Origin: an uncultured Candidatus Peregrinibacteria bacterium
Lineage (GTDB): Bacteria; Patescibacteriota; Gracilibacteria; Peribacterales; Peribacteraceae
Length of the DNA stretch: 27,841 nucleotides
NCBI GenBank assembly: GCA_913054215.1
Contig: CAJXJE010000001.1
Coordinates: 1 to 27,841, forward strand
Direction: 5' to 3'
In this document: piece by piece, positions 18,735-20,269 of the stretch
How positions within the stretch are numbered: position 1 is the first letter of the stretch
Layout: each line of letters opens with the position of its first letter
Program-made: the position numbers and the translations under genes
Notes under the pieces: generated by a model
Seen by the model: the letters and a program-made list of their open reading frames with translations, nothing else
What the model was told of the DNA's origin: nothing
Database searches by the model: none

Positions 18735-18775
18735 GAAAACCTGAAAGAGGTTAAGCTTTTCAGTTTTTCAGTTTT
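18735..18775. repeat. Inverted TTTTCA-octamer array forming a hairpin
   Basis: gaaaacctgaaag (18735-18747) pairs with ttttcagtttttc (18757-18769) with one mismatch and one G-U pair. Confidence 0.65.
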
Positions 18776-18787
18776 CCATCTAAAGTA

Positions 18788-19531
18788 GTGGGCATGACAA
18801 TCTTATTCGTTGTCCTCGGCCTTGTTTTCGGAAGCTTCGGTTCTGTTCTTGTTACACGCATCCCGGGTGGTAAAACTATTGTTGGACGCTCCGGTTGTCC
18901 GCATTGCCACAAAACTCTTACACCGCTAGAACTCATACCCGTCATAAGCTATCTCTTTCTTCGAGGCAGGTGTAAAGAGTGCAAGGTACCGATTGGATGG
19001 ATGTATCCCACGATAGAAATCCTCTCAGCACTACTTTTCCTTGCTGCGTGGCAGCTGCATGGTGAACCTATTACTGCCGCTCTTCTGGGACTTGTTCTAT
19101 GGCTCCTCTTGATTATTGGATTTATCGATGCGTATACACAGACCATTTCGGATCTTCTCAACATTCCTCTACTCGTTCTTGCGGTTCTCTACAGCATGCT
19201 TCTAGGACAGTTTGAAATTGGTGGTATCGTCCTCGGAGTGGCTTTCTTTGGGGCTCAGTGGCTTCTGAGTCGTGGTAAGTGCCTCGGGAGCGGGGATATC
19301 ATCTTAGCCGCTGGTATAGGGGCTCTAGTAGGCAGCTGGGAGCGCATGGTGGCGTGCCTGTTCCTTGTGTATGTCATAGGGGCTCTCATCGCCAGTACCC
19401 TCCTGCTGACAGGGCGCGTCAAACGAGGACAGTACATCGCATTTGCCCCGTTTATGGCGATAGGAGCTATTGCTACAGTCTTCTTTCAGTCGAGGATAGA
19501 TCAGTTTATAGCGCTGTATATAGGCATATAA
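18788..19531 (+). CDS. pilD: Prepilin peptidase (A24 family)
   Basis: FGSFGSV..RIP, RSGCPHC...LIPVISYLFLRGRCKEC zinc site, FIDAY and GSGD catalytic Asp motifs, IAFAPF. Start is GTG 18788 or ATG 18794. Confidence 0.92.
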   Translation: MGMTILFVVLGLVFGSFGSVLVTRIPGGKTIVGRSGCPHCHKTLTPLELIPVISYLFLRGRCKECKVPIGWMYPTIEILSALLFLAAWQLHGEPITAALLGLVLWLLLIIGFIDAYTQTISDLLNIPLLVLAVLYSMLLGQFEIGGIVLGVAFFGAQWLLSRGKCLGSGDIILAAGIGALVGSWERMVACLFLVYVIGALIASTLLLTGRVKRGQYIAFAPFMAIGAIATVFFQSRIDQFIALYIGI

Positions 19532-19632
19532 AATAGCAGGCTCTCGCCCAAAACTGAGTGAAAGCCTGATAAGGCATCGCATGTTAACGGTATACACCGT
19601 GCCCGCTCCGGAGAGAGGCGACCATTACGATA
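19528..19632 (-). ncRNA. Candidate structured small RNA (three hairpins), family unassigned
   Basis: Downstream of a minus-strand promoter; C(UCCG)G hairpin 19601-19619, hairpin 19587-19600, terminator-like hairpin 19537-19568 followed by CUAUUUUAU. Confidence 0.45.
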
Positions 19633-19638
19633 TTAAGA

Positions 19639-19666
19639 AGCTTACTGTAAATTTGATATTTGTCAA
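19639..19666 (-). promoter_or_regulatory. Promoter TTGACA-16-TAAGCT, divergent from smpB
   Basis: Reverse complement of tgtcaa (19661-19666) and agctta (19639-19644). Confidence 0.55.
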
Positions 19667-19725
19667 GCCTTCAAAAAGGTCTAAATTGTATCTAAATGGC
19701 CAATTTGAGCTATAATTTAAAAGAA

Positions 19726-20166
19726 ATGAAGATTGTGGCTCAAAATCGGCGTGCAAGATACGATTATGACATCGTAGACACCCTAGAGGCTGGAATATCG
19801 CTTACAGGCCAGGAGGTGAAATCCTGCCGTATGGGAAACGTCAATTTGGGCGGATCCTACGTATCTCTCATCTCCGGAAAGCCCGTTATCAAGGGGATGA
19901 AGATTGCGAAGTATAACTTCGCTTCCACTGTCGAAGACTATCAGCCCGGACGAGATCGCGTGCTTCTTATGAAGAAACGCGAGGTGGAAAAGCTCACATC
20001 AACTCTCGCAGAAAAAGGGGTGTCGCTCATTCCACTCGAAGTAAAAGCGGGCAAATATATCAAAGTAACGCTTGGTCTTGGAAAGGGAAGAAAGCGATAC
20101 GACAAGAGACAGAACAAGAAAGAGAAGGATATTAAGAGGAGGCTGAAAGAAGGGCGGGAGGTGTAA
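19726..20166 (+). CDS. smpB: SsrA-binding protein
   Basis: NRRARYDY, EAGISLTGQEVKS, RVLLMKKRE, GKGRKRYDKR. ATG 19726 with TATAAT 9 nt upstream. Confidence 0.97.
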   Translation: MKIVAQNRRARYDYDIVDTLEAGISLTGQEVKSCRMGNVNLGGSYVSLISGKPVIKGMKIAKYNFASTVEDYQPGRDRVLLMKKREVEKLTSTLAEKGVSLIPLEVKAGKYIKVTLGLGKGRKRYDKRQNKKEKDIKRRLKEGREV

Positions 20167-20181
20167 CGACAAAAAAGCAAA

Positions 20182-20269
20182 TCTGAAAAACTGAAAAGTT
20201 GAAAAAGTACTATGGCTCTATATCCATAAAAGAATTACTTTCAGGTTTTCAAATTTTCAAATTTTCAAT
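20182..20269. repeat. Inverted octamer arrays: (x-x-TGAAAA)x3, spacer, (TTTTCA-x-x)x4
   Basis: tctgaaaa actgaaaa gttgaaaa (20182-20205) and ctttcagg ttttcaaa ttttcaaa ttttcaat (20238-20269). Confidence 0.8.

Follow-up and report, generated by a model that had tools for sequence, protein, structure and literature searches.

A predicted structured RNA gene between pilD and smpB in Peribacteraceae

Locus, promoter and fold of the predicted RNA

The window analysed here is a stretch of 27,841 nucleotides, contig C1 of a Candidatus Peregrinibacteria genome (family Peribacteraceae) of 812 kb that is 78.5% complete. A pilD-like prepilin peptidase gene (A24 family; plus strand, 18788-19531; Pfam PF06750 and PF01478) is followed by smpB (plus strand, 19696-20166; PF01668) and then by recR, the three forming a co-oriented run. 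The intergenic gap between pilD and smpB is 164 bp long. It holds a predicted RNA gene on the minus strand, antisense inside the run, with pilD as its convergent and smpB as its divergent neighbour (both are considered here as context only). Short TGAAAA/TTTTCA units form inverted arrays in the gaps before pilD (18735-18775) and before recR (20182-20269).

The promoter is of the sigma70 type. Its -35 hexamer, TTGACA, lies at 19666-19661 and is separated by a 16-nt spacer from the -10 hexamer at 19644-19639, both on the minus strand and just where an earlier note on this DNA had placed them. A simple promoter scan overlooked this promoter; its hexamers are nevertheless conserved among relatives. 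TTGACA is found in 84 of 88 homologues, and the second and sixth positions of the -10 hexamer are A in 88 and T in 86, counts that are partly due to the way the homologues were selected. The spacer is 16 nt in 60/88. Genome-wide there are 105 promoter-like sites, and the RNA architecture follows only one of them, the site in the pilD-smpB gap.

The RNA is predicted to be about 105 nt long (minus strand, 19634-19528), starting 5-8 nt after the -10 hexamer and ending in a U-rich tail. The 5' end often reads GYCA (64/88 homologues), which may partly be a start-site preference. At the 3' end, the hairpin of 13 bp described earlier (P4, 19568-19537) and its U-rich tail (19536-19527) are both present on the minus strand as a predicted intrinsic terminator, and the tail overlaps the pilD stop codon. 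In 69/88 homologues, a 10-nt stretch of the terminator has 5 or more U. Because an A-tract upstream of P4 occurs in only 8/88, the predicted terminator is one-directional; for the pilD strand, no terminator was found at the RNA locus.

The minus strand folds at -38.4 kcal/mol (z -2.79 against shuffles). The plus strand folds more weakly, at -29.9 kcal/mol (z -1.60). A single sequence is only modest evidence for a structured RNA, and it is conservation in relatives that places the structure beyond chance. The 5' part of the RNA folds into a three-way-junction domain (minus strand, 19632-19576). Helix P1 (19632-19623 paired with 19584-19576), which was overlooked in the earlier note, closes the first two hairpins into this junction; a short linker and P4 follow. 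The first hairpin, P2 (19619-19601), has a UCCG loop closed by C-G; in its purine-rich 3' strand, one C (19605) bulges out with G on either side. The second, the short helix P3 (19600-19587), is present as previously described. The last base of its loop (19595-19592) is U, and 9 nt separate the loop from the P2 bulge.

Conservation and distribution in Peribacteraceae

In relatives, the strand divergent from smpB carries TTGACA, 16-18 nt, TAnnnT, a junction, a hairpin and a U-run. Homologues were selected by promoter, two-domain fold and U-run, and 88 distinct ones were obtained from more than 50 genera of Peribacteraceae. Note that statistics on these three properties are partly built in, since they were the selection criteria, and that related genomes are not independent samples, so the counts describe one family and not separate events. 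The homologous RNAs are about 100-230 nt long (median 137). Sequence identity is low, with a median of 47% and a range of 32-70% to the window RNA, and the loops and the linker vary freely.

Strong covariation was found when upstream regions of smpB from relatives were compared, a check that had been proposed with the original prediction. With 9 sequences aligned by MAFFT alone, which is blind to structure, two-sided changes are seen in 13 of 28 pairs, a level reached by 0/500 shuffles, with slid controls giving 0-4. A model-fitted alignment, which leans towards the model, has changes on both sides in 23 of the 28 pairs, also above all 500 shuffles and the slid controls. P1 changes on both sides in 6/8 pairs in the MAFFT alignment and 8/8 in the model-fitted one. 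P4 likewise covaries in both alignments.

Several properties of the junction played no part in the selection. In 81/88 homologues P1 encloses exactly two hairpins. The 3' strand of P2 has a bulge of a single C or U flanked by G (G-Y-G) in 63/88, compared with 124/1760 shuffles (7%). U is the last base of the P3 loop in 78/81, and the spacing from the bulge to this loop is 9 nt in 49/67. Among 67 held-out sequences, which had no part in building the first two models, two hairpins are found in 60, the bulge in 44, the loop U in 57 and the 9-nt spacing in 34. The P3 stem has 4 bp in 53/81. Taken alone, the junction domain has a median z of -4.5; in 82% of cases the sense strand gives the better fold.

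The distal part of P2 is far less constant, its length differing greatly between species. In long variants P2 is extended, often with a recurring C.A mismatch beside CUG/YAG (34 C.A loops in the domain). The UNCG hairpin reported for this RNA is present in the window with its UCCG loop and C-G closing pair, but it is not a conserved feature, as only 12/88 homologues have the string cUNCGg in their junction domain. The bulge base and the penultimate base of the P3 loop do not covary (p=1), which argues against a Watson-Crick contact between them.

Strong matches of the model in whole genomes are single per genome, and those that were checked sit at the pilD/smpB locus. Matches in metagenomes are again at pilD-smpB (5/5). 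A model search outside the family gave 0 non-family matches and another search gave only E-values of 0.015 or worse, at a low sensitivity, no more than 55/149 inside the family itself. Viral contigs gave 80 pattern matches, 0 of which match the model. Matches to the promoter plus GYCAG in other families are mostly mRNA leaders or coding DNA. One such site in another family of the class (L193, G038:C2:288131) has the promoter and a GTCAG start followed by a structured leader, and the N-terminus of its gene resembles, by eye, that of ribosomal protein L10. So far, at this limited search sensitivity, the predicted RNA is found only in Peribacteraceae.

Five genomes of the set (G095, G113, G114, G013, and G015) gave no RNA, so it may be dispensable. 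In three of them (G095, G114, and G015) pilD lies directly beside smpB, and neither the locus nor the rest of the genome gave an RNA. In some relatives, near-perfect and very long intergenic hairpins, possibly palindromic repeats, are found near pilD/smpB (L228:2000-2250, L096:1075-1205).

Own promoter, own terminator and covarying structure all support the earlier prediction of a stand-alone transcript about 105 nt long. It is very probable, from these comparisons, that the pilD-smpB gap holds a real RNA gene.

Comparison with known RNA classes

Rfam was searched with the window and 40 homologous loci at gathering and E-value thresholds. The only matches were chance hairpins that lie outside the RNA or have no relation to it. 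ARAGORN found nothing in the window. The earlier view that the RNA is not a tmRNA, SRP RNA or RNase P RNA thus holds, and no Rfam family matches it.

The RNA resembles tmRNA (RF00023) in its three-way junction and its smpB neighbour. It differs in having a long unpaired strand on the 3' side of the junction, and T-loop, CCA, D-loop and tag frame are all absent. The real ssrA, which the earlier note suggested locating, is intact on another contig (C93:811-1224) and has a normal tRNA-like domain. The predicted tag of this tmRNA (L002) is unusually long, 29 residues.

RNase P RNA (RF00010) and 5S rRNA (RF00001) have no match at the locus and are found elsewhere in 5/5 and 4/5 near-complete relatives, respectively. 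The protein-titrating or scaffold RNAs, namely 6S RNA (RF00013), the CsrB/RsmZ RNAs and bacterial Y RNAs, are alike in the mode proposed here, that of an abundant, stable RNA recognised by its shape. 6S RNA is a long rod with a central bubble, whereas the fold of this RNA is a junction plus a terminator, and a separate 6S-like locus exists. Three of five relatives have 6S-like RNAs that score 33-39 bits, under the Rfam cut-off (L056:1501-1650, L057:1501-1654, and L058:1501-1656), and none was detected in two members of the window's genus. In Y RNA, as in this RNA, a pyrimidine that bulges from a helix is conserved; here, however, the bulge lies in an internal helix and not in the terminal stem. 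The Y RNA partner Ro60 (TROVE, PF05731) is found in 0/19 genomes.

CsrB/RsmZ have unpaired GGA repeats, which this RNA lacks. No unpaired GGA is found in 70/88 RNAs, and two are found in only 1. CsrA is encoded in 13/18 genomes, and its presence does not track that of the RNA. The presence of csrA is unexpected in such reduced Peribacteraceae genomes. In several of them csrA forms tandem clusters of 2-3 paralogues (G031:C1:1009665-1010687, L405; G017:C3:187000-187505, L407; also G078 and G197).

A core descriptor of the RNA, with a sensitivity of 44/88, is absent from tmRNA, RNase P RNA and the 6S-like RNAs. It gave three unconvincing matches upstream of a 5S gene, in a stretch without recognisable 16S markers. 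Resemblances to 5S helix III, 16S helix 21 and an extended Shine-Dalgarno sequence were considered and set aside.

The closest comparison is with orphan structured noncoding RNAs. The raiA motif (ModT; PMC11706538) and sets of motifs (PMC2864571) were found by comparative genomics, and their functions were unknown at discovery. Like them, the present RNA is free-standing and has its own promoter and terminator and a covarying fold of several helices. It differs from them in being smaller, in having far fewer invariant bases and no Rfam match, and in being found so far in Peribacteraceae only. Neither Rfam 15 nor the papers searched, which do not include subscription journals, describe it. By its predicted structure, the RNA is a new family of orphan structured bacterial noncoding RNA with no Rfam entry.

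Possible modes of action

In aptamers and ribozymes, many invariant bases are kept. In base-pairing small RNAs, a single-stranded seed is kept. RNAs recognised by shape keep their geometry and a few extrahelical bases. The present RNA keeps geometry and a few extrahelical bases in the same manner, which suggests that it is recognised by a protein. The free variation of loops and linker and the 32-70% identity fit shape recognition. In the mechanism proposed, the near-consensus sigma70 promoter would drive constitutive transcription of a stable RNA that ends at its own one-directional terminator. The 5' domain would fold into the three-way junction, with a fixed spacing between the bulged pyrimidine in P2 and the loop, ending in U, of the 4-bp hairpin P3. 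Packing of P2 against P3 would probably bring bulge and loop side by side, making one shape-defined surface, and a protein would recognise this surface by its shape. The RNA would then act in trans as a stable ribonucleoprotein that scaffolds or titrates a specific protein. That it acts in trans by binding a protein, rather than by pairing with mRNA, sensing a metabolite or coding, is given an even chance. Transcription, the bulge-loop contact and protein binding are proposed jointly, and the case for the three together is evenly balanced.

An unlikely alternative is that the RNA is a cis-acting antisense or transcription-interference element, insulating or tuning read-through from pilD into smpB-recR. 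The plasmid RNAs RNAI of ColE1 and CopA of R1, the models for such an element, are about 100 nt long, have three hairpins of which the last is the terminator, and keep structure more than sequence, the latter drifting along with the target. The present RNA shares this size, the terminal terminator hairpin and a conservation of structure above that of sequence. Its antisense position within the co-oriented run and the lack of a terminator for the pilD strand agree with such a role, as does the convergent pilD gene in 75/88 loci, with the 3' end of the RNA usually within about 15 nt of the pilD stop. RNAI and CopA, in contrast, overlap a fixed target, which this RNA seems to lack, and here P1 encloses the first two hairpins in a junction and single bases are invariant. 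Pairing with its own complement needs no invariant bulge, loop U or spacing. Moreover, the RNA is retained with smpB in three genomes in which pilD was not found (G009, G026, and G061). In one genus (L086, L413), the block of RNA plus smpB is inverted between pilD and recR, and the RNA, still kept, points into recR.

Riboswitches that act by antisense, such as the S-box behind ubiG (PMC2566862), have a promoter, a structured domain and a terminator directly behind a convergent gene and directed at its 3' end (PMC9943018), and the present RNA has the same layout. The earlier note argued that the RNA cannot be a riboswitch leader as no gene lies downstream. Since antisense-acting riboswitches exist, that argument is incomplete; a separate folding test makes a riboswitch unlikely. 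A ligand of the junction, or a protein in an attenuator, would here govern antisense read-through into pilD. In 21/88 homologues upstream sequence can capture the 5' strand of P4 before P4 forms. In the folding calculation, however, opening P4 has a median cost of 16 kcal/mol and costs less than 5 in only 1/88, and no conserved antiterminator or competing fold is found across the 88 homologues. The RNA has very few invariant bases for an aptamer, matches no known one in Rfam and is kept without a convergent gene. A riboswitch or attenuator is therefore quite improbable.

The neighbourhood of smpB led to another suggestion, a link to ribosome rescue, with the RNA as a decoy that binds SmpB or as an accessory. 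The promoter of the RNA is back-to-back with smpB in most genomes, and the RNA moves with smpB in G016, as it stays with smpB in the three genomes without a detected pilD and in the inverted genus. Yet it is kept beside pilD and parted from smpB in three other genomes (G141, G119, and G094), and genes are often inserted between RNA and smpB, the inserts reaching about 4.4 kb. The lack of a T-loop, CCA or large D-loop, the absence of the core descriptor from tmRNA, and the intact tmRNA elsewhere, with its normal tRNA-like domain, also speak against a decoy. No complementarity of at least 8 nt between tmRNA and the RNA was found. Beyond adjacency the link to ribosome rescue finds no support, and the decoy has a low probability. 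As natural rearrangements part the RNA from either neighbour, its position seems to reflect synteny by inheritance and not an obligatory link in cis. Among the neighbouring ORFs, no conserved candidate for an RNA-binding protein was found.

A base-pairing small RNA acting in trans would also have its own promoter and terminator, and the U/C-rich loops could suit pairing. It is distinctly improbable here, as a conserved single-stranded seed is absent, and Hfq is found in 0/5 genomes and ProQ in 0/19. An SRP RNA relic left after loss of Ffh is more doubtful still. In its favour, the M domain of Ffh (PF02978) is over the cut-off in 0/121 genomes of the class, a small SRP RNA was not found in five near-complete relatives, and recR is near the RNA as it is near the SRP RNA gene in Bacillus. 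Against it, the RNA has no helix-8 symmetric loop, its P3 loops are not GNRA, and SRP RNA (RF00169) has no match in the window or the homologues at permissive thresholds; Ffh is missing class-wide, whereas the RNA is found in one family only. The 13-aa peptide gene that had been offered as an alternative can practically be dismissed: the 13-codon ORF (minus strand, 19625-19584), though it runs from ATG to stop in the window genome, is absent or unrelated in 7/7 other members of the genus, has its start codon inside P1 and is judged incidental, and any ATG ORF of at least 8 aa occurs in only 40/88 RNAs.

Under the reading in which the RNA acts in trans through a protein, a bolder proposal, itself rather unlikely, is that it forms the core of an undescribed housekeeping ribonucleoprotein in a lineage without SRP, Hfq, ProQ, and Ro60. 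Through the bulge-loop site it would then target the ribosome, RNA polymerase or the translocon, as a near-universal stable RNA beside tmRNA, RNase P RNA, 5S rRNA, and 6S RNA. Two sharply defined bases for mutation, the bulged C at 19605 and the loop U at 19592, make the partner and the function directly testable in vitro. Peribacteraceae are ultra-small (CPR) bacteria whose genomes measure about 1 Mb and in which SRP and most known RNA chaperones are missing. Most of them nevertheless keep this RNA in single copy with a strong promoter. Its persistence in more than 50 genera suggests that selection maintains a function for it in these minimal cells.
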